A stretch of DNA of 64,000 nucleotides from a bacterium (GCA_037137535.1 JBAXKC010000004.1:49675-113674), one strand, 5' to 3'. Shown: positions 1-63,801, counted from the first letter of the stretch. Notes: generated by a model from the letters alone, not told the origin. A program made the numbers and translations.

Positions 1-731
1 GCTCAGGCCTTGGTGATTTTGCTGAAAAAATCAACGGTGTAAGAATAAATTTTTCTGACATTCCCGGATTTGCAGCATCTTCAGTGGCAGGACATGCAGG
101 AAAGCTAATTATAGGGGAATTATTCGGCAAACATGTTCTTGCGATGCAAGGAAGATTTCATTTTTATGAAGGTCACTCCCTTGAAAAAGTTATCTACCCT
201 ATCAGAATAATGAAACTTCTCGGAATTAAAAACCTTATCGTTACAAACGCAGCCGGTGGTGTAAATACAGAATATAAACCCGGTGATCTTATGGTAATTA
301 ATGACCATATTAACTTCATAGGAACAAATCCATTAATCGGCAAAAACTTTGATGAATTTGGACCTAGATTCCCCGATATGTCAAAAGCATACGCTGATAG
401 TCTGATTGAACTTGCTAACAAATCAGGTGAAAAACTTGGTATTAAATTGCAAAACGGTGTATATGCTGCTCTTACCGGACCATCATACGAAACACCTGCT
501 GAAATAAGAATGCTTAGACTTTTAGGAGCTGATGCCGTTGGAATGTCAACTGTTCCTGAAGTTATAGCAGCTAATCACTGCGGAATGAACGTACTGGGCA
601 TTTCCTGCATAACAAACATGGCTTGTGGCATTTTAGACCAACCTTTAAACCATGAAGAAGTTATTGAAACATCAAACATGGCAAAAGCTTCTTTCATCGG
701 GCTAATAAGTGAAGTAATAAAAAATATTTAA
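1..731 (+). CDS. punA: Purine nucleoside phosphorylase (trimeric PNP family), 5'-truncated by the window edge
   Basis: Frame is open from position 3 (SGLGDFAE...). Motifs QGRFHFYEG, TNAAGG, GPSYETPAE, GADAVGMSTVPE and SCITN are present. Confidence 0.95.
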   Translation, partial: SGLGDFAEKINGVRINFSDIPGFAASSVAGHAGKLIIGELFGKHVLAMQGRFHFYEGHSLEKVIYPIRIMKLLGIKNLIVTNAAGGVNTEYKPGDLMVINDHINFIGTNPLIGKNFDEFGPRFPDMSKAYADSLIELANKSGEKLGIKLQNGVYAALTGPSYETPAEIRMLRLLGADAVGMSTVPEVIAANHCGMNVLGISCITNMACGILDQPLNHEEVIETSNMAKASFIGLISEVIKNI

Positions 732-759
732 GTTTTGTAAACTTATTAATATAAAATCC

Positions 760-786
760 TAAAGTTTTAAGGAGAGAGGTCGATAA
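760..786 (+). promoter_or_regulatory. Sigma-28 (FliA)-type promoter, copy 1
   Basis: TAAAGTTT at 760, 15-nt spacer after TAAA, GTCGATAA at 779-786 (one mismatch to GCCGATAA). Confidence 0.8.
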
Positions 787-793
787 ATAATAT

Positions 794-879
794 ATAGACC
801 AAACAAATGGTCATACCCCAACCTCCTCCCCAAAGTCTGGTAGCCGCCCAAAAAGGTGGCTTTTATTTTGCCTTTTTTT
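794..879 (+). ncRNA. Candidate sigma-28-dependent sRNA, copy 1
   Basis: Hairpin GACCA-aacaaa-TGGTC, C-rich tract CCCCAACCTCCTCCCC (816-831), terminator AGCCGCC-caaaaa-GGTGGCT followed by T tracts. Ends are estimated. Confidence 0.7.
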
Positions 880-920
880 AGACTCGCATTAAGTTTTGTT
901 AACAAACTAAAATAAAACCC

Positions 921-947
921 TAAAGTTTTTTAAAAAACTGCCGATAA
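921..947 (+). promoter_or_regulatory. Sigma-28 (FliA)-type promoter, copy 2
   Basis: Perfect TAAA-N15-GCCGATAA with the extended -35 TAAAGTTT. Confidence 0.88.
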
Positions 948-954
948 ATATTAC

Positions 955-1040
955 ATAGACCAAACAAATGGTCATACCCCAACCTCCTCCCCAAAGTCTG
1001 GTAGCCGCCCAATAAGGTGGCTTTTATTTTGCCTTTTTTT
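955..1040 (+). ncRNA. Candidate sigma-28-dependent sRNA, copy 2
   Basis: Same core as copy 1; terminator loop is CAATAA. Confidence 0.7.
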
Positions 1041-1081
1041 AGACTCGCATTAAGTTTTGTTAACAAACTAAAATAAAACCC

Positions 1082-1108
1082 TAAAGTTTTTTAAAAAACT
1101 GCCGATAA
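1082..1108 (+). promoter_or_regulatory. Sigma-28 (FliA)-type promoter, copy 3
   Basis: Perfect TAAA-N15-GCCGATAA. Confidence 0.88.
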
Positions 1109-1115
1109 ATATTAC

Positions 1116-1201
1116 ATAGACCAAACAAATGGTCATACCCCAACCTCCTCCCCAAAGTCTGGTAGCCGCCCAATAAGGTGGCTTTTATTTTGCGTTTTTT
1201 T
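1116..1201 (+). ncRNA. Candidate sigma-28-dependent sRNA, copy 3
   Basis: Same core as copy 2. Confidence 0.7.
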
Positions 1202-1372
1202 ATACAAATATCATGCCAAATACATAGTGATTAAACTGTTTTTTACAATATAACTACTTAAATTATAGATATAAGACAAAAAAGGATATCTTGTAAAATC
1301 ATGGACAATTATTTTATACAATAATTAGAGCAACTACTAATTGTTTTTAAACCAACTAATAGGAGAAAAATA

Positions 1373-2089
1373 ATGGCATTTAAAATGGAAAAAATGACAG
1401 AAGCAGATATAGCGTACTATAACTCATTTGAATTTAAAAACGTTGCTTTTGGCAGTATAAAATATGACCCTCCGTTATTACCTCCACCACGAAACTTTGT
1501 AGTTGAGGAGGGGGTAGGAATAAGCACAACTGCTTGGATCGTAGATAAAGAACGCAATGCATTTGTACGAGGAGTAGGAGGTGGGGGACATGGAATGCCT
1601 GAATTTCAAGTCCTTGTATGGAACGGTGACGTAATAATATGTTCTTTTTATGAAAAATATACGAAGAATCTTAAGGAGTTTAATTTCTGGTGGATTCAAG
1701 CACCAAAGCACCTTCAGAGCGAAGAAAACAGTAAAGAAATAATAAATATGATAAAAGAAGCTCTTATTCTTGAAGGTACAGGAATTAGCATACCGGCAGG
1801 CGCTTTAAATGATCAAGATTATGCCTGGCTTTACTCTATAGAGTTTAATAATGAAAAACCTTTGACTGGGCTTGTTTCTACAAAAGAATTGAAAAAAGAC
1901 GACCCTGAAATAAAAAGTAAAATAAAGCAGGTACTTGAGAAGTGTATAAATAATCCTGACGTTCCTCAAGATTTATTAGAAACTCAAAATTATTCATTAA
2001 AACCAAAAAAATTCACTTTTAATGAAATGGGAGTAGGATTCCGCCTTAATCCTCAAGATTATAAAAATAATTATATGCTTAGGGATTAA
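1373..2089 (+). CDS. Hypothetical protein
   Basis: 238-aa ORF with AGGAG RBS at about 1361. No recognised family. Confidence 0.75.
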   Translation: MAFKMEKMTEADIAYYNSFEFKNVAFGSIKYDPPLLPPPRNFVVEEGVGISTTAWIVDKERNAFVRGVGGGGHGMPEFQVLVWNGDVIICSFYEKYTKNLKEFNFWWIQAPKHLQSEENSKEIINMIKEALILEGTGISIPAGALNDQDYAWLYSIEFNNEKPLTGLVSTKELKKDDPEIKSKIKQVLEKCINNPDVPQDLLETQNYSLKPKKFTFNEMGVGFRLNPQDYKNNYMLRD

Positions 2090-2130: not shown

Positions 2131-4749
2131 TTAAAACTTTTTTAACTTTGCAAATTTAGCATCTAAAGGCTTTAAACCTAATTTACCAAAATCAATATTA
2201 TACATAATGTCCGACCCAAACTCTAAAACCTCTTTAACAGAGCCTATTCCGTATTTTTCATGAAAAACTCTATCACCTGCGTTAAAAAGCTCAAGTTTTT
2301 CTTCTTTTTCAATAGTAGCAACATATTGTTCTGCTTTTTGTTGAATACCAAGTTGAAGCTGAAGATTTTCCGTCAAATGAGGTTTAACTTCTTCTAAGGA
2401 AGCCGCTTTAGGCTGTGAAGGAAGTTCTTTTTTCTCCTGTATTTTTTGTGTTAATTTAACAGGCTCAGGAGTTTTTTGAACGAAACTACTTTTAACAACA
2501 GGCTTTACAGGAGTTGGAGGTTTAAAGGCAGGGAGCTTATTAGTTGAACTAATAGGGGAATTAATATTATTTGAAGGTGCTTTATTCGCGGATTTAGGAG
2601 GAACAAAACTTTTTCCAAACCCTGACGATGAAGGTAATTTTTCATAAGACGATGACAAAGGTTTGAAGCCACCACCAAAAGAACCTGACGGCTCAACTTT
2701 TCCATAATTATTTTCATAAGCGGATTTATGCCCATAAGAAGAATTAGCTTGCTCATTATTACGTCTTGAAGTAGAACCTCTGCTCATATCAGCTTCAAAA
2801 AGATGCTCTGGAATTTCTTCTAAAAATCTACTCTTAGTGTAATATTTGTAATCACCATAAATAAGTCTTCTCTTTGCGTTAGTCATATAAAGAAGGTCTT
2901 CAGCTCTTGTTATACCTACATACATCAAGCGTCTTTCTTCTTCCATTTCATTTGTATCGTTTAATGAACGGGAATGAGGGAATATTCCTTCTTCAAGACC
3001 TGCTAAAAAGACAGCAGGAAATTCAAGACCTTTTGCCGCATGAAGTGTCATAAGAGTAACGCTTTCTTTTTCTTCTTCGAGCTGGTCAATATCGCTTACA
3101 AGAGCAACTTGAGAAAGAAACTCACCAAGATCATTACCGTTTTCTGTCTGTTCAAAGTTTCTGGCAACACTTACAAATTCCTGCAAGTTTTCAATTCTGC
3201 TTTCGGCTTCGTCTGTACCTTCTTCTTTCAGTTCATTAATATAACCTGTCGATTCAATTAAAGAAGCAATAAATTCGCTTAAACGCATTGTATTAAGTTT
3301 TTCTCTATATCCTGCAATTATTTTTGCAAAATCTTTTAATGCCTTTACTGTTTTTGCAGAGAAATTTTCTTCTTCCTCAATATTTTCAACAATGGAAAAA
3401 ACGGTAGATTTCTTTGCTTTTGCTTTTTCATCAAGTTTTTTGATAGTTGTAGCACCGATAGAGCGTGCCGGAACATTAATTATTCTTTTTAAACTCTGTG
3501 AATCATTGGTGTTATATATTAATTTAAGATAAGAAACAATATCTTTAATTTCTTTTCGCTCATAGAACTTCATCCCACCAACCATAGTATAAGGAATACT
3601 TTTGGACATGAACGCTTCTTCTATAACACGACTTTGTGCGTTTGTTCTGTATAATACGACACAATCCTTGTATTTATAGCCGTTTACAAGCAAATCTCTT
3701 ATTTTACCTACAAGATAATATGCTTCTTCCTGTTCGTCATTAGCTTCAAAATAGCGTATGCTCTTACCTTTACCCTTATTTGAAACAAGCTTTTTATCAA
3801 TCCTTTGGCTGTTATTTTGAATAACATAATTCGCAGCCTGAAGAATTGTATCGGTAGAACGGTAATTTTGCTCAAGTTTAATAATGTCGGAAGTAGGATA
3901 ATCTCTCTGAAAATTAAGAATAATCTTATAATCAGCACCACGCCAGCTGTAAATAGATTGGTCGACATCACCTACTACGCATAAACTTCTTTTTTTGAAG
4001 TCAGGCTTTTCATTTCCACCTGAAAATAAACTTGAAATAAGTCTGTATTGCGCAAGGTTAGTATCCTGATACTCGTCAACCAGTATATGTTTAAATCTGT
4101 TATGATATTTCTGCAAAACTTCCGGACATTTAGTAAGCAAATTTACAGACATTAAAAGTAAATCATCAAAATCTAAAGCGTTATTGGTTGATAACATTTG
4201 CTCATAGGTAATATAAAGCTTTGAAATTATTTCAGCTCTATAGTCTTTAGCTTTTGTAGCATAAGTAAAGGCATTCTGCATTTTATTTTTTGCCATACTT
4301 ATAGCCGCTTGAACCATTTTAGGCTGATAAACCTTCTCATCGAGATTATCAGCTTTTATTGCCTGTTTAATAAGACTTGAACTGTCATTTGAGTCAAAAA
4401 TAACAAAGTTTTTTTGCCATGTCTGACCATCTTCATTTTTATAATTTTCTATATCATATCTTAAAATACGCCCGCAAATATTGTGAAACGTACCTACCCA
4501 AAGATTTTTAACTATATCTTCACCTAAAATAGCGGTAAGACGAGATTTCATTTCTTTTGCAGCTTTATTGGTAAAGGTTACCGCCAAAATTTCATGCGGA
4601 TTAACGCCCTTTTTAATTAAATAAGCGATTCTACTTGTTAATACTTTTGTTTTTCCGCTTCCTGCACCTGCAAGAACCAGCAAAGCACCTTCATCATGAG
4701 CTACTGCTTCTTTTTGTTGGGGATTTAACCCGTTTATAATCTCTTCCAT
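2131..4749 (-). CDS. pcrA: ATP-dependent DNA helicase PcrA/UvrD
   Basis: AGAGSGKT, TFTNKAA, DEYQD, GDVDQSIYSWRGA, LEQNYRS, TLHAAKGLEF and EERRLMYVGITRA. Long S/P/K-rich linker before a C-terminal Tudor-like domain. Confidence 0.96.
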   Translation of the reverse strand: MEEIINGLNPQQKEAVAHDEGALLVLAGAGSGKTKVLTSRIAYLIKKGVNPHEILAVTFTNKAAKEMKSRLTAILGEDIVKNLWVGTFHNICGRILRYDIENYKNEDGQTWQKNFVIFDSNDSSSLIKQAIKADNLDEKVYQPKMVQAAISMAKNKMQNAFTYATKAKDYRAEIISKLYITYEQMLSTNNALDFDDLLLMSVNLLTKCPEVLQKYHNRFKHILVDEYQDTNLAQYRLISSLFSGGNEKPDFKKRSLCVVGDVDQSIYSWRGADYKIILNFQRDYPTSDIIKLEQNYRSTDTILQAANYVIQNNSQRIDKKLVSNKGKGKSIRYFEANDEQEEAYYLVGKIRDLLVNGYKYKDCVVLYRTNAQSRVIEEAFMSKSIPYTMVGGMKFYERKEIKDIVSYLKLIYNTNDSQSLKRIINVPARSIGATTIKKLDEKAKAKKSTVFSIVENIEEEENFSAKTVKALKDFAKIIAGYREKLNTMRLSEFIASLIESTGYINELKEEGTDEAESRIENLQEFVSVARNFEQTENGNDLGEFLSQVALVSDIDQLEEEKESVTLMTLHAAKGLEFPAVFLAGLEEGIFPHSRSLNDTNEMEEERRLMYVGITRAEDLLYMTNAKRRLIYGDYKYYTKSRFLEEIPEHLFEADMSRGSTSRRNNEQANSSYGHKSAYENNYGKVEPSGSFGGGFKPLSSSYEKLPSSSGFGKSFVPPKSANKAPSNNINSPISSTNKLPAFKPPTPVKPVVKSSFVQKTPEPVKLTQKIQEKKELPSQPKAASLEEVKPHLTENLQLQLGIQQKAEQYVATIEKEEKLELFNAGDRVFHEKYGIGSVKEVLEFGSDIMYNIDFGKLGLKPLDAKFAKLKKF

Positions 4750-23989: not shown

Positions 23990-26626
23990 TTGTGGGTTAG
24001 AGAGACTTTGAAAAATACAAAAAAAAGAAAAAAAAGAAAGCTATTATTAAAATTGCTAATTTGGATTTTAATGCTTGTTAGCTTTTCCTTGATTTTAATG
24101 AGTATATTTTTAGGAAATATTAGTCAAAACAATCTTTTAGATACAAGTAAATCATTAAGTGACATGAGTGTTAATTCCGTCCAAAAAACAGGTAATAACA
24201 TGATAGATGTAACTGAAGGAGTTATGTCTAAAACAAATACTGATTCCATGAATCTAAGCAGCAAAACCCTTACAGAAACATCTAACTCTCTAGTAAAAGA
24301 AAGCAAATCATCAATAGAAGATATTAGTTCAAAATTAACCAATTTAAGTCATGATAAAATGAATCAGACAAATCATGACATACTGGCTGTAACAGAAAAA
24401 GCTATAAAAAACACAGGTGATTCTTTAATAAATACAAGTCAAAATTATTTAATTGAGGCTGTTACTGACAAAAATAAAAAAGAAGCAGATGAAGTTTCAG
24501 GGCAAATTTCTAATTCTATTGGAAATTGTATGGATATCCTTGAAATGATAACTAAATTTAAAGATATAAAAAATTTAACTGCTGAAAGTGTCCAATATTT
24601 CATTACTTCAGCACAAAAAAGTTATATGGTATTAACAAATATTTCCGTTGCAAATAAAACAGGTGATGAAATTGCAAAAGTATCAACCGATGAAGTTGTT
24701 ACGACAACTGATTTAAAAAACATATCCACAAATCAAGCATTTGAATCGGCAGTTAAAGGGAAAAAATATATTTCGGAAGTAAAAACAAAACTAGGTTATT
24801 CATATGTTACTGTCGGTATCCCAATTTGGCAATATCCTGGTAGAACATCTGGAGCTTTAATTGCAGATATAAGGCTATCTAATATTACTGAACTTGTAAG
24901 TAAAAAACAGATTGGTAAAACAGGATTTTGTTTTGTAGTGGATGATAATGGAAAGATTCTTTTCCATCCAAACAGACAAATTAATATTAACGCTTCTGAC
25001 CTTTTATCTTTAAATAATGAAAAATTAAAATATAAAATTTTTAAAATCAATTCGAATACAGAGGTTTTAGCTGTTGCATCAAACGTAAAAGCACTTAATA
25101 GTAAAGTAATAGTAGTACAGCCAACTACTGAAGCATTTAAAGCAGCAGAAGAAATGGAAACAGTTGTACAAAAACAAACAATTCATACATTAAAACTTAT
25201 GAATTTATCCTCTAATCATGGATTAAAAATTGCACTTAAAATTATGAATGATGAAGCAAAAAAAGCTGCTTCTGAAAGAGCAATAAAAATGACGCAAAAA
25301 ACCACTAAAGATATAAATTCAGCTGTAAATACGTTAAAAGATTCAAGCAAAAAATCTTTAAATTCAGCTTTAAATAATTTAAGACCAATTGCAAAAAATC
25401 AATCAGAAAGTGTTTTAAAGGAAATTCAAGAACAATCAAAGGGTAAAATAATAAAATCAGAAGAAAAAATAGTGTCCCATACTGTAATTTTATTATTCAT
25501 ATTCCTTGCCATATCTTCAGTTATTGCCGTTTATATGGCAAAAAATATTGCAAATCCAATACAAAATCTTACTCAGGTCGCAGATAAAATTGCTAAAGAT
25601 GACCTTTCAGGTGAAATACAAATTGAAGACAGAGAAGAAGAAGAAATTGATAATCTTTATAATACCTTTAACAATATGCAGCATAATTTAAAAGGCATAA
25701 TTTCTAAAATAGCATCTAATGCTGAAAATGTATCCTCTTCTTCTAAAGAATTAACTACAATAACTGCTGAATCGAGCAAAGAAATCGAAAATATTGTTAT
25801 AGCTATTCAAAATGTGGCAAATGGTGCAAAAAATCAGTTAGACTTATCAGAAAATACAAAAACTATAGCCTATAAAATAGCAGAAGAAAGCCTGCAAATA
25901 AAAACAACTACAACAGCGGTTATTGATTCATCTAATATAGCAAATGACAAAGCTCTTTTTGGAAGTAAAGTATTAAATGAACTTGTCATCCAAATGAATG
26001 TTATTAACGAAAAAATCAACTATTCGGGAGAAATTGTTAATGTACTTGAAAAGCAGGCAGAGCAAATCAATAAAATTATTGAAATGATTACCTCTATTTC
26101 AGAACAAACCAACCTTTTATCACTAAATGCAGCAATAGAAGCCGCAAGAGCCGGTGAAAACGGAAAAGGTTTTGCGGTTGTAGCTGATGAAGTAAGAAAG
26201 TTAGCAACTCTATCAAAGAAATCAGCTGGAGAAGTTAATACCGTTATCTCTGAAATTAAAAAAGAAATTGCTAATGTCGTTAATTCTATTAAAGATGGAA
26301 GTACAGCAGTAAAATCCGGATTAGAAAAAACAAATGATGCTAATACATCTTTTAAAGATATTATAAACTCCTTTAAAGATGTTTCATCGCAGGTAAGTAA
26401 CGTCTCTGAATTAATTATTAATATTAATACAGGAATACAGGAGATGGTAGGGAAAATAAATACCATATCTGAAATATCAAAAATAGCCTCAGATAAAACA
26501 CATGATGTTGTTTCTTCAGTTGAGGAACAGAATGCATCGATGGAAGAAATTGCAGGAACGGCGTCAATGCTTTCTCAAATGTCTTCAGATTTAATAAATG
26601 TAGTAAAATCATTCAAGTTAAACTAA
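23990..26626 (+). CDS. Methyl-accepting chemotaxis protein (dCache-like sensor, HAMP, MCP signalling domain)
   Basis: Two TM helices, [20 protein letters not shown], and [37 protein letters not shown]. Start codon uncertain. Confidence 0.95.
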
Positions 26627-34959: not shown

Positions 34960-36234
34960 ATGGTTATAGCTTTAAATAAAAGGAATTTGCAGATGACAAG
35001 TATCTATGTAATCGAAGTAGAAGGTCACATTATAGACTCTCTAACATTACCAAAAATTATGGATACAATCCTTGATATGGGTGCCAGTTATAACATTGAA
35101 GATATTAAAATAGGCAATAAAAAAGAAGAATCATCATATGCAAGATTATGTATATCTGCTGAAGATGATGAAATAATGTCAAAAATACTTGAAAAAGTAA
35201 CAAAACAGGGCGCAACACTTCTTAAAGAAGAAAATGTTACTTTAGGAGAAAGTGTTAAAGACCAAACAATGCCTGATGCTTTTTATTCCACAACAAACTT
35301 AAAAACTGATATTTTACTTGACGGAGAATGGATAGCTGTTGGTGATACCGCTATGGACTGCGGTATTGTTGTTAATACAGAAAATAAAACTGCGAAATGC
35401 CTTAAACTCAGCCAAATTAAAAAAGGCGATAAAATTGTTTTAGGCTATATGGGGGTTAGAGTTCATCCGCTTAAAAAACATGAAGATAAACAAGTTTTTT
35501 CTTTTATGGGAAGTGAAGTTTCATCAGAAAAACCAAAATCCTTGGTTATCAAGAAGATTGCAAAAAGAATGATCGAAATGAAAAAAAATAACGAAGGAAA
35601 AATTCTTTTTGTACTTGGGCCTGCCGTTGTTCATACAAAATCAAGAGAAGCCTTTTCAAAACTTATTGAACTGGGTTATGTCGACTATATGTTTGCAGGA
35701 AATGCTCTTGCAACACACGATATAGAAGCAGCTTTATATGGAACATCCTTAGGTGTCTCACTTGAAGATGGAACTCCTATCACAGGCGGACATTCACACC
35801 ATTTAAGAGCTATAAATAAGGTCAATCAATGCGGAAGTATTAGAAATGCCGTTGAATCAGGCATAGTAAGCAACGGAATTATGCACACCTGTATTAAAAA
35901 TAATGTTGACTTCGTTTTAGCAGGTTCAATAAGAGATGACGGACCTTTACCGGAAGTTATAAGAAACTCTGTTGAAGCACAATGCGAAATGAAAAAACGT
36001 ATCAACAAAGACGTACAAATGACCATAATGGTTGCGAGCATGTTACATTCAATAGCAGTCGGCAACCTTTTACCTGCATATGTTGAGACCATATGCGTAG
36101 ATATAAACCCTGCAGTTGTAACAAAACTTGCAGATAGAGGCAGCTTCCAAACAATCGGGCTTGTAACCGATATAGAAGCATTTATGAGAGATCTGGCAGA
36201 ATGTATTTCCGAGGAGACGAAAAACAATGCATGA
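34960..36234 (+). CDS. TIGR00300/LOR-SDH-domain protein, ornithine cyclodeaminase-like (C-terminal part of ArgZ/AgrE)
   Basis: GHIIDS, FYSTTN, FSFMGSEVSSEK, GNALATHDIE, LAGSIRDDGPLP and LADRGS. The true start may be 34993. Confidence 0.88.
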   Translation: MVIALNKRNLQMTSIYVIEVEGHIIDSLTLPKIMDTILDMGASYNIEDIKIGNKKEESSYARLCISAEDDEIMSKILEKVTKQGATLLKEENVTLGESVKDQTMPDAFYSTTNLKTDILLDGEWIAVGDTAMDCGIVVNTENKTAKCLKLSQIKKGDKIVLGYMGVRVHPLKKHEDKQVFSFMGSEVSSEKPKSLVIKKIAKRMIEMKKNNEGKILFVLGPAVVHTKSREAFSKLIELGYVDYMFAGNALATHDIEAALYGTSLGVSLEDGTPITGGHSHHLRAINKVNQCGSIRNAVESGIVSNGIMHTCIKNNVDFVLAGSIRDDGPLPEVIRNSVEAQCEMKKRINKDVQMTIMVASMLHSIAVGNLLPAYVETICVDINPAVVTKLADRGSFQTIGLVTDIEAFMRDLAECISEETKNNA

Positions 36235-37024
36235 ACGAATTTTAATGTGCCCTCCGACCTATTTCAGTATTGATTATGCAATCAATCCATGGATGTCGGA
36301 AGAAACAAACTCTGACCTTGAGTTAACAAAAAAACAATGGAACAACCTTAAAAGCACTTTAGAAAGTCTTGGTGCTGAAATTGTAGAAATGGAACCACAG
36401 CCAAATTTACCAGATCTGGTATTTACTGCAAACGCAGCTGTAGTTTATAACAAAATTGCAATAATCAGCCGTTTCAGATTTGAAGAAAGAAGACCTGAAG
36501 AGCAATTCTTTGCTGACTGGTTCAGAAACAATGGATTTATAGTAAGTCTTTTACCTGAAGAAATTTGCTTTGAAGGTGCAGGCGATGCTCTTTTCATTGG
36601 TGATACCCTATTTTCAGGACATGCGCCACGTACAGACATCAACTCACATGCTCATATAGCTAAAATATTTAATATAAATGTTCTGTCTTTAGAGCTTGTA
36701 GACAAGAGATTTTACCATATTGACACATGTTTCTGTCCATTAACAGACGGTTATGTGATTTACTTCCCGGGCGCATTTGATGAATATGGCAACAAAGTTA
36801 TTGAAGCTAATGTACCGCCCGAAAAAAGAATTGCGGTAACAGAAGAGGAAGCCTGTAAATTCAGCTGTAATGCAGTAAGTTTAGGTAAAAACGTTGTAAT
36901 GAATAAAACAACTGACAGACTTAAAAAAGTGCTTGCAGATAAAGGCTTTAACACTCATGAAGTAGATCTTAGCGAATTCCTTAAATCAGGCGGTTCTGCA
37001 AAATGTTTAACTTTAAAAGTCTAA
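36227..37024 (+). CDS. Amidinotransferase / arginine dihydrolase-like protein (N-terminal part of ArgZ/AgrE)
   Basis: ILMCPP, YAINPWM, PDLVFTAN, FEGAGD, FYHIDTCFCPL and EFLKSGGSAKCLTL. Confidence 0.9.
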   Translation: MHERILMCPPTYFSIDYAINPWMSEETNSDLELTKKQWNNLKSTLESLGAEIVEMEPQPNLPDLVFTANAAVVYNKIAIISRFRFEERRPEEQFFADWFRNNGFIVSLLPEEICFEGAGDALFIGDTLFSGHAPRTDINSHAHIAKIFNINVLSLELVDKRFYHIDTCFCPLTDGYVIYFPGAFDEYGNKVIEANVPPEKRIAVTEEEACKFSCNAVSLGKNVVMNKTTDRLKKVLADKGFNTHEVDLSEFLKSGGSAKCLTLKV

Positions 37025-55059: not shown

Positions 55060-55307
55060 TTGTTTTTGCTCCTGCGATTATTTAATAGTTTCTATATAAA
55101 TGATATTTACTTTATAAAACATTTTCATACCATTTTTTGCTTATATAACATAAATTTATTCTACATTATATAGAGTATTTTAAGCATATATTGCAACTAT
55201 TCTTTAAAGAAAATACTAAAACAACCGATTATATCTTTAAGATATCTTTACAAAAATTATAAATATTTTACAAGGAAGTAAAATTAAGAAAGTCATAGGA
55301 GTTTTAT

Positions 55308-56033
55308 ATGCACGGAAGCCTAGATTTTAAAAACCCTATAAATCTTTTCACTCTAAACGCTGAGCCATGGTTTCAAGATACAGACTTTGAGCCGATTTTA
55401 AAAAATGACATCTGGTGCAATGGAACACTAATATTAAGATCAGGCAATCATTTAACAAAGGAAATTATAAACAAATTATTAAACTTTGGCATAAATGAAG
55501 TAACCATTTGCAATGATAATGAACCTGCACCAAAAGATGAGCTTAATGCCCTTGAAGAATTAAAGATAAATTTCTTAAAAACGCAAAACGTTATTTTATT
55601 TGACAAACAAGAAGCAAACATTAAAAACCTAAACAGAATGCTTGCCTTTATAGGATTTAAACAAAGAAAAATTATCAGCTTATCGGACTTAAAAAACTTT
55701 ATAAAAATCATTAATAATTTCAAACCCTTATATACCTTCATTAGCTATGATTTATTCATAAATAACGGAGGAAAAGACATTTTAAAAAAACTTATACTAC
55801 CCGATAATTGCAATATATTCATAATTTACGAAGGCTGCCCAAAAGATAAAAAAAAGATTATTGATGAAGTCGAAGGAAAAAACCGCAATAACAATATAAA
55901 AGTATTATTCAAACCCATTTTAATAGGAACTCTACGATCTATAATAAGTGATTATACCCAAAAACACTTTGACTCTCTTTTAAAGACCTCACTCCCAAAA
56001 GTCAACACACCTATATATAAAATGTTCAACTGA
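55308..56033 (+). CDS. Hypothetical protein: HD-GYP-type N-terminal motif plus degenerate receiver-like domain
   Basis: GTLILRSGNHLTKEIINKLLNFGINEV; later VILFD...LFKPI pattern of a receiver fold without a clear phospho-Asp. Confidence 0.55.
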   Translation: MHGSLDFKNPINLFTLNAEPWFQDTDFEPILKNDIWCNGTLILRSGNHLTKEIINKLLNFGINEVTICNDNEPAPKDELNALEELKINFLKTQNVILFDKQEANIKNLNRMLAFIGFKQRKIISLSDLKNFIKIINNFKPLYTFISYDLFINNGGKDILKKLILPDNCNIFIIYEGCPKDKKKIIDEVEGKNRNNNIKVLFKPILIGTLRSIISDYTQKHFDSLLKTSLPKVNTPIYKMFN

Positions 56034-59888: not shown

Positions 59889-61322
59889 ATGACCCGGATA
59901 ATATTTGAAAAAAGTCATGAAGGAAAAAGAGGAATTAAATTTCCCGCAACAACAGACAAATCAATAGAAAGTTTTATACCTAAAGAATATCTCAGAGAAG
60001 AAAAAGTCGGACTGCCTGAATTAACCGAGCTTGATGTAATAAGACATTACACAAACCTTTCACATAAAAATGTTTCGGTTGATACTGTATTTTATCCTCT
60101 CGGCTCTTGCACGATGAAATATAACCCGAGAATAAACGAACTTACAGCCTCATTAGAAGGATTTACAAACATTCACCCCGAACAAAACGCAACACACGTT
60201 CAAGGGGCTCTGGAACTTATGTATGAGCTTCAAGAACAACTTAAAGTTATTACCGGAATGGATGCTGTAACATTACAACCTGCGGCTGGTGCTCATGGTG
60301 AATTTGTCGGGATGCTCATAGTTAAAAAATATTTTGAAAAACTCGGTCAAAAGCGTACAAAAGTTATCGTTCCTGACTCAGCTCACGGAACAAACCCTGC
60401 AACTGCCAAAATGTGCGGCTTTGACGTTATAGAAATTCCTTCAAACGATAAAGGGCAAGTTGATATTGAAGAGCTTAAAAAAGTTCTTAATGAGGATGTC
60501 GCAGCTCTTATGATGACAAACCCTAATACCTTGGGGCTTTTTGAGGAAAATATCTTAGAAATATCAAAAGCAGTACACGAAGCAGGCGCATTATTATACT
60601 ATGACGGTGCAAATCTTAACGCTATTATGGGAATTACAAATCCTGCACTTATGGGCTTTGATATTGTTCACGTTAATCTTCATAAAACCTTTTCAACTCC
60701 ACATGGTGGCGGTGGACCTGGAGCAGGACCTGTCGCTGTTGTTGAAAGATTAAAATCATTCTTGCCTGTTCCAATAGTAAAATATGATGGATACAAGTAT
60801 TCCTTAGACTATGATTTGGACGACTCCGTAGGTAAAGTCAAAGCATTCTTCGGCAATTTCGGCATATTAGTTCGTGCATATACCTATATTATTATGATGG
60901 GACGCACAGGACTTCGTAAAGTAAGTGAAGATGCTGTTTTAAACGCTAATTACCTTAAAGAAAAACTAAAAGGGGTGTATAAACTTCCTTATGATCAAGT
61001 TTGTATGCATGAATTTGTGATTTCAGGCGAAAACCAAAAAGCACAAGGTGTAAACACAATGGGAATAGCCAAAAGACTCATTGACTACGATATGCACCCA
61101 CCAACTGTTTACTTCCCGCTTATTGTACCTGAAGCCATTATGATTGAGCCGACTGAAACAGAAGACAAAGAAACAATGGATCATTTTGTAGAGATAATGC
61201 TGAAAGTAGCAAAAGAAATCGAAGCTGATCCAGAACTTGTTTTAGAATCACCGCTAAAAACACCTGTTTCAAAAGTTGATGAAACACATGCAGCGAGAAA
61301 TCCTAATCTTAGATGGAAATAA
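59889..61322 (+). CDS. gcvPB: Glycine dehydrogenase subunit 2
   Basis: [35 protein letters not shown] and MIEPTETE. Confidence 0.97.
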
Positions 61323-61327
61323 AAACT

Positions 61328-61361
61328 AAAATCCCTCATCATTAAATGAGGGATTTTTTTT
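61328..61361 (+). terminator. Terminator of the gcv operon
   Basis: AAAATCCCTCAT-cattaa-ATGAGGGATTTTTTTT. Confidence 0.85.
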
Positions 61362-61375
61362 ATAAACTTAAAATC

Positions 61376-61461
61376 AAAAAAAGGCAAAATAAAAGCCACC
61401 TTTTTGGGCGGCTACCAGACTTTGGGGAGGAGGTTGGGGTATGACCATTTGTTTGGTCTAT
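61376..61461 (-). ncRNA. Candidate sigma-28-dependent sRNA, copy 4 (dispersed, inverted)
   Basis: Reverse complement matches the copy-1 core from TAGACC through GCCTTTTTTT. Confidence 0.7.
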
Positions 61462-61468
61462 ACATTAT

Positions 61469-61495
61469 TTATCGGCAAGTTATTTTAAAACTTTA
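61469..61495 (-). promoter_or_regulatory. Sigma-28 (FliA)-type promoter, copy 4
   Basis: Minus strand TAAAGTTT-taaaataactt-GCCGATAA, 15-nt spacer after TAAA. Confidence 0.88.
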
Positions 61496-62088
61496 GTACT
61501 TTATTTGATGTATTTTACATAACTTAACAAAAAAATTACGTTTTTATTATAAAGCTAAATAAATTATAATATTTATTTATACTTATTATGTTGATTTTGT
61601 AATCGCTCAAATGCTTAACTCTATTCATTTTTCTAGATAATCACATCAATTGAGGTTATCTAGAAAAATGAATAAATTAGTAACACATTGGAATTTAACA
61701 CTTGAAACGTAGTAACACTATGCTAATATGAAAATGAGCTATAACTCAAAAATACATATAAAAATAAAATATTAATAAAACTTATTTCTATTAACACTAT
61801 AAGTTATTGGGCTTATTTGTTTTGAAATAACTGAAGAAATTTCAAAGTTATATTATCCAATGTTATATAAATATAAACCTTCACCTAATTATAAGAAAAT
61901 AGTGAAGATTAATCAATAAATATTGATTATGGAAAACCTAAAAGTCCTTTAATAGTCTATAATTACTGTTTAAAGCTTCTATAAAGCTAAAGAATAAGAT
62001 ATTATTATTCAATAATATTAAAATCAAGTTTATCTGTATTTTAATAAATAGGTAATGATTTTAAGTCGAGAATTAGAGGAGCATTACT

Positions 62089-63801
62089 ATGAATTGGATC
62101 AAAAATTTGAAAATTTCTCAAAAAATTCTGACATTAGTTGTTTTAATGGTTGTATTTTTGGGGATTATTGGTTACATAGGCTATTATTTTAATGCTAAAA
62201 CAGGAGCAGAGTTAAAAGATCTTTATACTTCGAGACTTGCTTCAGTTGAAGCCATGGGCAGAATGAACGAAGACTCTTCCATGGCAATTCAAAACTTATT
62301 TCAATTCATGATTAATATAGATCCAGCTACAAATAATCGCCTTAATAACAGTATTAATAAGCATTTAGCCCAAATAGACAAAGATTTTAAAGATTATCTT
62401 TCTACTCCATTAGATCCTTATGAAGTAGAAAGAGTTCACATAATAAAAAACAATTTACATGATTACCTTATAGCCGTTAACAAAGCTCAAACTAAAGCAT
62501 ATAAGAACGAGAACAGTCAAGCTTATAAAATATATCTTGAATCTGAAGGTCATGTAAATATTATCCATAAAGCAATTGTAGAAATAATAAATTATAATAA
62601 CAATGAAGGTAAAAAACTTTATTTGCAGTCTGAAAAAGATGCTACTTTTGCAAATGTATTCTTAATGTTATCAATCTTATCAATTTCTGCTCTTACATTA
62701 TTTATTGGGTCAATAATGGCAAAAATAATTTCAGCACCAATAAACAATGTAGTAAACAGTTTAAGTCAGGTAGCATTGGGAAATCTTTCTCTTGATGAAG
62801 TTAAAGTTGATTCAAAAGATGAAACTGGAATTCTGGCAAGTTCTCTTAATACAACGGTTAAAAATTTAAGACATCTAATAATAGAAGTGGCAAAGTCAAC
62901 TGAAGAAATATGTGCTTCTTCTGAAGAGATGGCAGCTTCAGCTGATCAAACAGCACAAGGCTCTCAGCAAACAGCAAGTACAACAGCTCAAATGGCACAA
63001 GGTGCACAGGAAATCTCAAAAAGTGTAGAACATGGGGCAGTAACTATTAATAGAATGAATAAAGCAATTCAAGAAATATCAGAAGACGCAAAAATAGTTG
63101 CAAAACTAGGTAATGACAGCGAAGTTAATGCAAATCAAGGAAGTAAGCATGTTCAAAATGCTATTGAAAAAATTGACAATATTAAAACTGTATCAGCTGA
63201 TATATCAGTAACAGTAGCAAAATTAGGAACATTAAGTTCTGAAATTGAAACAATTGTTGATTTAATTAAAGGAATAGCAGGACAAACAAACCTATTATCA
63301 CTTAATGCCGCAATAGAAGCAGCTAGAGCCGGAGAACATGGCAAAGGATTTGCGGTTGTAGCTGAAGAAGTTAAAAAACTTGCTACTCAATCAGCAGAAG
63401 CTACTGATAAAATTACTGATATGATAAAAGAAATCCAATCACAGACTGGCCTTGCAGTTAGTAAAATGGATAAAGCAACTAACGAAGTTAAAGAAGGCGT
63501 TGCTGTTGTTAATGAAGCTGGAAAAGCTCTCAATCAAATTATCAGCCAAGTAAAAACTGCTAATTCTAAAATTCAAGAAATTACTAAAGAAATTGATGGG
63601 GTTGCTCATAACTCTAATGATGTAGTTAAAATGATTGAAAATATTTCAGCCATTACAGAACAAACAGCAGCCAGTGCAGAAGAAATTTCCAGTATTACTC
63701 AAGAACAAACAGCCAGTATACAGGAAATCAGCGCAGGTTCTCAAGTCCAAGCTAAAGTAGCTGAAAATCTTCAAACTCAAATGTCAGTATTTAAAGTATA
63801 G
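62089..63801 (+). CDS. Methyl-accepting chemotaxis protein (four-helix-bundle sensor, HAMP)
   Basis: NLKISQKI N-terminus, two TM helices, KDETG.L HAMP, and [37 protein letters not shown]. Confidence 0.96.

Follow-up and report, generated by a model that had tools for sequence, protein, structure and literature searches.

The DNA analyzed here, a stretch of 64,000 nucleotides from a bacterium (GCA_037137535.1 JBAXKC010000004.1:49675-113674; hereafter the window, with positions counted from its first letter), carries four copies of a short cassette in which a sigma-28-type promoter is followed by a gene for a small RNA (sRNA) with its own terminator. Three of the copies stand in tandem and the fourth lies far downstream on the opposite strand. 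Cassettes of the same architecture recur in other genomes, and both the gene and its family can be read directly from the copies and their homologues; the mechanism, occlusion of ribosome-binding sites (RBSs) with repression of translation, is proposed by analogy with a better-studied sRNA. We consider it probable that each cassette constitutes an independent gene encoding a trans-acting sRNA of ~76 nt, expressed from the sigma-28-type promoter and blocking G-rich RBSs. Conservation of the family across flagellated Melainabacteria, in the orders Gastranaerophilales and Vampirovibrionales, is the best explanation of the sequence comparisons, and to judge from these comparisons the family is a new one, of a familiar kind, that Rfam does not catalogue.

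Tandem Repeats Finder recovers one array in the window, at 728-1202, with a period of 161, 3.0 copies and 93% matches. The original prediction had described three tandem units with a 161-bp period and a distant fourth copy, and every observed detail of that description is confirmed. The parts of the four copies are listed below; the 5' end of each predicted RNA is a predicted position, set ~7-8 nt past the -10 box.

728-888, 889-1049 and 1050-1202 (+): the three 161-bp units of the array, each with upstream motif, promoter, RNA and terminator
728-742, 889-903 and 1050-1064 (+), and 61513-61527 (-): the motif that opens each unit
760-786 (+): promoter boxes of copy 1, TAAAGTTT-N11-GTCGATAA, with 1 mismatch to the consensus
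921-947 (+): promoter boxes of copy 2, TAAAGTTT-N11-GCCGATAA, with 0 mismatches
1082-1108 (+): promoter boxes of copy 3, with 0 mismatches
61469-61495 (-): promoter boxes of copy 4, with 0 mismatches
794-869 (+): predicted RNA of copy 1, ~76 nt, scored at 117.6 bits by the covariance model; the fold gives a 5' hairpin at 797-812, an unpaired tract at 817-833, a terminator stem-loop at 842-861 and a U-run
955-1030 (+): predicted RNA of copy 2, with its tract at 978-994 and terminator at 1003-1022
1116-1191 (+): predicted RNA of copy 3, with its tract at 1139-1155 and terminator at 1164-1183
61386-61461 (-): predicted RNA of copy 4, scored at 116.7 bits by the covariance model; the fold gives the hairpin at 61443-61458, the tract at 61422-61438 and the terminator at 61394-61413
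61496-61527 (-): upstream part of the copy-4 unit, starting TTAAGTTATGTAAA, the same motif that opens each array unit

The whole copy-4 unit spans ~61386-61527 (-). A core of 55 nt occurs exactly four times in the window (794-848, 955-1009 and 1116-1170 on the plus strand, 61407-61461 on the minus strand), with 0.00 matches expected by chance from 100 shuffles, and two covariance-model searches of the window returned no fifth copy. Unit 1 agrees with unit 2 at 143/161 positions and unit 2 with unit 3 at 155/161, the mismatches of the latter pair being confined to the array end. Across the RNA part (unit positions 67-152), which has a G+C content of 46% against 32.5% for the window, the four copies vary solely at one base of the terminator loop, A or T; the earlier statement that the core differs only in this loop therefore holds for all four. 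Unit 1 and copy 4 show 0 differences across the 86-nt RNA part and 18 across the 66 nt upstream of it. Among the more distant copies, 17-18 positions of these 66 nt differ, sparing TAAAGTTT and CGATAA, and the promoter spacer keeps its length of 11 nt in 4/4 copies with differing sequences, as had been predicted. This pattern, in which the RNA is invariant and the upstream region has drifted, suggests that the RNA parts of the paralogues are under purifying selection, and it favors the interpretation of each cassette as an sRNA gene.

The promoter pattern common to all four copies is TAAAGTTT-N11-G(C/T)CGATAA. In a search of the window, TAAAGTTT-N11-GCCGATAA at 0-1 mismatch was found solely ahead of the four cores, the next-best match having 3 mismatches; a looser pattern, TAAA-N16-18-CGATAW, adds two sites, both of them intragenic. 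Promoters of the sigma-28 (FliA/SigD/WhiG) class have a -35 box TAAA(GTTT) and a -10 box (GC)CGATAA set 11-12 nt apart, and the cassettes show this arrangement. Against the Escherichia coli FliA sites that served as the comparison set, the boxes and spacing of copy 2 match those of the tar promoter (PMC4183435, Table 2). All four units open with TTAAGTT(T/A)TGT(A/T)AA, 33 nt ahead of the -35 box, and the opening 15-mer of units 2 and 3 is the same as the -35 box and spacer of the E. coli ycgR FliA promoter (PMC4183435, Table 2); across genomes, 10/14 copies have TTGTWAAS ahead of TAAAG, at a distance of 16-17 or 26-28 nt. This unit-opening motif could bind an activator, could be left over from a second promoter or could be due to chance. 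Elsewhere in the window, a sigma-28-like box, TAAAGAAA-N11-ACCGATTA, is present at 55205-55230 (+), ~80 nt before an open reading frame (ORF) that belongs to no known family (55308-56033); it is the sole other intergenic candidate of this type.

Homologues were sought in one scan of 185,579 species genomes, the window's own species not being among them, with a pattern made of 13 nt of the C-rich tract and a T-run within 15-45 nt. The pattern contains neither promoter nor hairpin, and it finds only carriers of the exact 13-mer. The scan matched 59 loci, of which ten, from 8 genomes, have the full architecture (L004, L014, L016, L021, L024, L025, L026, L037, L042 and L048); the remaining 49 are chance matches and were used as controls. 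Six of the ten homologues are labeled Gastranaerophilales, one Vampirovibrionales, one Vampirovibrionaceae, one 'bacterium' and one 'uncultured Gammaproteobacteria.' The other genomes have one or two copies each, and two metagenome-assembled genomes (MAGs) contain two divergent paralogues (L014 with L016, and L025 with L048). Sibling copies, which the original prediction had proposed for the window, are thus present in these two genomes as well, but the tandem form that it took as dosage amplification is limited to the window's lineage.

The promoter boxes were retained in these homologues despite being absent from the query. TAAAG-N16/17-CGA is present no more than 110 nt upstream of the tract in 9/10 homologues, compared with 0/49 chance loci; the tenth, L021 from a high-GC genome, has TCAAGTTC-N12-ACCGATAC, that is, TCAAG instead of TAAAG, and TCAAGT is present in E. 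coli FliA-bound promoters (PMC4183435, Table 2). Homologues that had lost the boxes while keeping the rest, which the original prediction had named as evidence to look for against itself, were therefore not what the scan recovered. When 13 sequences are aligned, no column upstream of the RNA is invariant apart from those for the AA of TAAAG and the CGA of the -10 box, and the spacer is free to vary. Such conservation is as expected for a promoter recognized by a protein of the FliA/SigD/WhiG class, and we regard the assignment to this sigma class as a strong inference from sequence. One of the homologue loci, L048, has an additional sigma-28-like box of good quality, TAAAGAAA-N12-GCCGATAT, at 1640-1666 (-), before a 57-aa ORF (1429-1602, -) that has a Shine-Dalgarno (SD) sequence and no Pfam family and lies ~340 nt downstream of the sRNA gene on the same strand.

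The predicted structure is also conserved. In the predicted fold of the 79-nt RNA, a 5' hairpin (GACCA/UGGUC) is followed by an unpaired C-rich stretch and a terminator, with a minimum free energy of -20.3 kcal/mol and z of -2.6 to -2.75; 2-3/200 shuffles fold equally well, and the fold of the antisense strand (z -1.55) does not surpass that of shuffles. The terminator-like hairpins of the array (842-861, 1003-1022 and 1164-1183) follow the form seen in each copy, a 7-bp GC-rich hairpin and then a T-run. Folded singly, each of 12 RNAs gives the 5' hairpin, in varying sequence, and the terminator, with a predicted length of 76-101 nt among the RNAs folded. Alignment of 12 RNAs with MAFFT and RNAalifold yielded 0 pairs, because hairpins of unequal length were misaligned, and was replaced by an alignment of 13 confident members to a covariance model built from the window copies. 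Here, 92.9% of cells are paired and both sides have changed in 6/12 pairs, values that 0/500 shuffles matched and beside which slid 3' partners pair at 27-51%, but it must be set against these figures that the scored alignment (A7) was fitted to that same structure and is hence favorable to it. In the 5' hairpin both sides have changed in 5/5 pairs; the covariation check suggested at the outset accordingly finds a hairpin whose sequence changes while its pairing is kept. A model built with L021 left out (R2) scores L021 at 32.7 bits, compared with 27.2 for the best control with 13-mer and T-run, and a single-sequence model (R1) missed or barely detected it. A further candidate in a cyanobacterium, Crinalium sp. 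(L055 1990-2070, -; 23-24 bits), was rejected as a homologue because its 13-mer is itself the 5' arm of a terminator stem and the promoter boxes are absent.

No known RNA family accounts for the cassette. In searches with all 4227 Rfam families, none came near its gathering score, either in window 700-1250 at E<=10 or in the 10 loci at E<=1, in agreement with the original prediction, whose authoring model had not recognized a described family. The best sub-threshold match, BjrC1505, reached 21 bits, far from its cut-off of 50, and Yfr1 appeared among the results at neither gathering nor relaxed thresholds. The array likewise has no blastn match in phage and plasmid records, and a mobile element is therefore unlikely.

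The most conspicuous part of the RNA is its tract, CCCAACCUCCUCCCCAA, which is invariant across the family (in full form CCCAACCUCCUCCCCAA(G/A)(U/C)C) and contains the anti-Shine-Dalgarno (anti-SD) sequence CCUCC flanked by C-runs. The scan forced 13/17 tract bases, and it counts against this invariance as evidence that 13-mer and T-run are conserved by the design of the scan; the four unforced bases at the tract flanks (5' C, 3' CAA) are nonetheless kept in 10/10 homologues, compared with 0/49 chance loci. The CAU 'anti-start' beside the tract is not conserved. The ideal partner of the tract is GGAGG flanked by G-runs, which is to say a strong RBS. In the mechanism that we propose, the RNA would be produced while the flagellar sigma factor is active, and its C-rich tract would pair in trans with G-rich ribosome-binding regions of this form; pairing at the RBS would then block initiation of translation, as it does for the similarly built Yfr1. 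The 5' hairpin would serve as a protective element, the long conserved single strand and the terminator would complete the build of an sRNA, and the additional copies in the window genome would raise the RNA dose.

Several observations weigh against this interpretation. Target searches covered the 64 kb of the window and 33 kb of homologue loci (~100 kb), and no convincing target was recovered from the DNA searched; for translation-start sites the best energy is only -17 kcal/mol, where the 1% background quantile is -14.6. Some homologues have weak -10 boxes (TTCGAAGA, TTCGAGTA and ATCGAAGA, with CGAAGA and CGAGTA among them). The window does contain the two chemoreceptor genes of the MCP type that the original prediction had reported (23990-26626 and 62089-63801), but neither has a sigma-28-like box, whereas E. 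coli tar and tsr do carry FliA boxes (PMC4183435), and neither fliA, nor any sigma factor gene, nor flagellar genes were found within the 64-kb window. The homologue L042 is labeled Gammaproteobacteria; the best named relative of its flanking protein is from a Cyanobacteriota MAG, at 47% identity. The invariant tract, at 17-20 nt, is longer than a usual seed, and a protein or a single long partner would fit it as well. Finally, the tract has a predicted unpaired probability of 0.81-0.99 in 9/12 RNAs and 0.58-0.69 in 3/12, but its exposure is best described as consistent with the models and not proven by them, because shuffling the flanks makes the tract only a little less open (2.5-80% of shuffles equal or exceed it in openness); its CCCAAC is predicted to be paired with GUUGGG in L014 and L048. 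These two loci represent a paralogue type of their own, in which the 5' hairpin consists of GUUGGG and the tract's CCCAAC and only CUCCUCCCC is left free, and which may, on the predicted fold, be a self-masking variant.

It is possible to accept the sRNA and question its promoter or its mode of action. The absence of fliA from the window, the MCP genes without a box and the several poor -10 variants would all be accommodated if the RNA were transcribed with another sigma factor, either a different group-3 sigma or sigma-70 with an activator, and had nothing to do with flagella; the recurrent TTGTWAAS could then be the site of such an activator, and 0/11 loci have flagellar genes adjacent to the RNA. 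But the boxes and their spacing equal the enterobacterial FliA consensus exactly in a host that is a melainabacterium, TAAAG and CGA alone are conserved, at fixed spacing, over two orders, and the high-GC homologues lack a TATAAT-like hexamer. Flagella are, moreover, reported for precisely the two orders that hold the family, to which all labeled hosts belong, in the cited parts of PMC3787301 and PMC4451040, and a FliA-type sigma-28 gene is annotated in another melainabacterium, Vampirovibrio chlorellavorus. Transcription by another sigma factor is thus, in our assessment, a possible but unlikely account. A role through protein binding, with the long C-rich tract making the RNA a decoy, a sponge or an abundant scaffold, would explain why the invariant single strand exceeds typical seeds and why target searches recovered no strong mRNA site, and several copies would suit a stoichiometric role; the same alternative was raised for Yfr1 by its authors, in the part of their paper cited here (PMC2190773). 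No candidate protein is known, however, and the tract lacks GGA and so would not be a sponge for CsrA, which is listed for V. chlorellavorus; the failure to find targets pertains to just ~100 kb of melainabacterial DNA, and Yfr1, the closest analogue, was itself shown to base-pair, according to the cited part of the work on it. We consider protein binding quite unlikely as the primary function, and retain pairing with G-rich RBSs as the probable one.

Two further explanations would relocate the function to a peptide or to a neighboring gene. In the window copies, the minus strand presents a strong SD ahead of an ATG (GGAGGAGG-N7-ATG), which could encode the peptide of a type I toxin-antitoxin-like pair with the C-rich RNA as its antisense regulator, and type I systems are frequently multicopy or tandem. 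Yet the ATG is missing in most homologues, and the antisense ORFs, of 16 to >39 aa, have in common only 'MGRRLG,' which is the tract in frame, and then diverge; an antisense promoter or terminator was not found in the cassettes, and the antisense fold is unexceptional, as noted above. The RNA could alternatively be a cis-acting leader or attenuator of a downstream gene, perhaps with a proline-rich leader peptide, PQPPPQ. A start codon in frame precedes PQPPPQ in 7/13 copies, and copy 3, L024, L025 and L026 are followed by a co-directional ORF, but 6/13 copies lack such a reading frame for the peptide and none has an SD sequence. Copies 1 and 2, furthermore, precede only further copies, while copy 4, L014, L037 and L048 face a convergent gene as their next large gene. 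The downstream genes are mutually unrelated, as is the gene neighborhood at large, which is not conserved across loci and consists of unrelated housekeeping genes; given these unrelated neighbors and the convergent genes at no fewer than four copies, the RNA is therefore not the leader of a particular gene. No conserved peptide was found on either strand of the cassettes, which speaks against both the type I toxin pair and the leader peptide. We hold the toxin-antitoxin explanation to be highly improbable, and the leader explanation is hardly more credible than that.

The surroundings of the cassettes are those of an ordinary chromosome, with genes for PNP, UvrD/PcrA, DnaE and FtsH, glycine-cleavage genes and a gene for an ArgZ-like arginine dihydrolase. 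The closest named relative of the DnaE is from a 'Candidatus Melainabacteria bacterium' MAG, at 75% identity, followed by Gastranaerophilales MAGs at 62-65%, and the Melainabacteria-like host that the original prediction proposed is supported by these relatives. The array is flanked by the PNP gene and by an ORF at 1373-2089 (+) whose protein belongs to no family and has no relative in any homologue locus. This ORF contains two G-rich sites, near 1497-1520 and 1571-1593, that are complementary to the tract at -23.6 and -24.4 kcal/mol and are among the five best non-self complements on both window strands; they sit in coding stretches rich in glycine, EEGVG and GVGGGGHG, and could be a local target or a coincidence of codons. 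A comparable case in L048, at 3935-3997 (+), is an intergenic UUGGGGGGGAGGU located ~55 nt ahead of an ATG and complementary to the tract at -26.9 kcal/mol. Model R2 gives 20.8 bits to the minus strand of this interval, which lacks the 13-mer. The spot could represent a target site or else a paralogue that has decayed.

Copy 4 lies at a distance of 600 bp from the second MCP gene. It is convergent with a gcvP subunit gene (59889-61322), and the DNA separating these two contains a perfect hairpin at 61330-61357 (AAAATCCCTCAT...ATGAGGGATTTT), probably a bidirectional terminator that the two convergent genes share. In L037, the sRNA gene is followed, ~780 nt downstream, by a bacterial RNase P RNA (2830-3191, +; 256.7 bits), and an 81-aa ORF listed at that site is therefore spurious. 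The window also holds, at 34960-37024 (+), the ArgZ-like arginine dihydrolase gene followed by a DDAH-like gene, a pairing familiar from cyanobacteria and here present in a non-photosynthetic relative of that group.

The identification of this family extends a known kind of mechanism to a new lineage and overturns nothing. Melainabacteria, which occur in guts and groundwater and are for the most part uncultured, are a sister lineage of the Cyanobacteria, and no regulatory RNA was found described for Melainabacteria or Vampirovibrio, either in Rfam or in the literature as judged by titles. Literature searches likewise recovered nothing on Melainabacteria with fliA, and a text search for the tract sequence gave only unrelated papers. 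With its flagellar-type promoter, a class-wide sRNA would provide a handle on post-transcriptional control of motility in Melainabacteria, and the RNA could serve as a marker to be compared with the gain and loss of flagella.

Among known systems, the family shares features with several groups of sRNAs. Each repeat of the array has its own promoter and terminator and an RNA near-identical to its siblings, as is typical of sibling or tandem sRNAs, and this tandem array of complete sRNA genes recalls NsiR1 of Nostoc, which is reportedly organized in such a way; the promoters of NsiR1 are said to be HetR-dependent, unlike the sigma-28-type promoters here. LhrC, Qrr and the csRNAs are other sibling sRNAs, and the csRNAs and LhrC use C-rich, anti-SD-like motifs. 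All of these, NsiR1 included, differ from the present family in having other kinds of promoter, no sequence similarity to them was seen, and the array form is present only in the window's lineage. A closer parallel for the promoter is CJnc170/FlmR of Campylobacter jejuni, described in the cited part of PMC11187230 as a stand-alone, unprocessed, FliA-dependent sRNA that feeds back on flagellar biogenesis. Like the RNA described here, it is a stand-alone sRNA of the FliA class with a sibling copy (its paralogue CJnc10). It differs in belonging to an unrelated phylum, in its length of 47 nt and in a FliA dependence that is experimental there and inferred here, and no sequence relation was seen, no Rfam family having been matched. 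The UTR-derived sRNAs (from untranslated regions) of E. coli are similarly controlled by the flagellar sigma factor and connect the synthesis of flagella to translation and ribosome genes, to follow the cited part of PMC10578931, whereas the RNA here is autonomous and multicopy, with its own terminator and an anti-SD tract.

The closest analogue is Yfr1 of the cyanobacteria, which the original prediction had not named. As described in the sections cited, Yfr1 has a 5' stem-loop, an unpaired stretch with the ultraconserved ACUCCUCACAC and a terminator (Voss et al., 2007; PMC2190773), and it represses translation by sequestration of the RBS, as was shown experimentally via base pairing (Richter et al., 2009; PMC2796815). 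Both RNAs have a 5' stem-loop, an unpaired C/U-rich motif with CUCCUC and a GC-rich terminator with a U-tail, and both are encoded by stand-alone genes conserved over a class-level lineage, in hosts that are sister groups. They differ in that the 11-mer ACUCCUCACAC is missed by 3-4 mismatches in 12/12 RNAs, where the Yfr1 authors allowed <=2, and no cassette contains it at that tolerance; in predicted size, 76-101 nt here compared with 54-69 nt for Yfr1; and in gene order, guaB-yfr1-trxA being found in most Yfr1 genomes and not present here. The window RNA is also multicopy and has a sigma-28-type promoter; such a promoter was not found described for Yfr1, a literature search for Yfr1 with SigF having recovered nothing. 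It is likely, by analogy, that the family works like Yfr1, although its 11-mer, size, gene order and covariance-model results place it outside the Yfr1 family. A deeper relationship is conceivable but doubtful, in which the two derive from a shared ancestor, built of hairpin, exposed CUCCUC tract and terminator, that preceded the split of Cyanobacteria and Melainabacteria. Control by the flagellar sigma factor would then have been acquired in the flagellated branch, where the RNA would compete, in a timed and dose-adjustable manner, with the 16S anti-SD for the strongest G-rich RBSs. If this were true, the RNA would be among the oldest traceable bacterial sRNAs; in either case, the family offers a natural comparison with Yfr1 on the age of anti-SD sRNAs.

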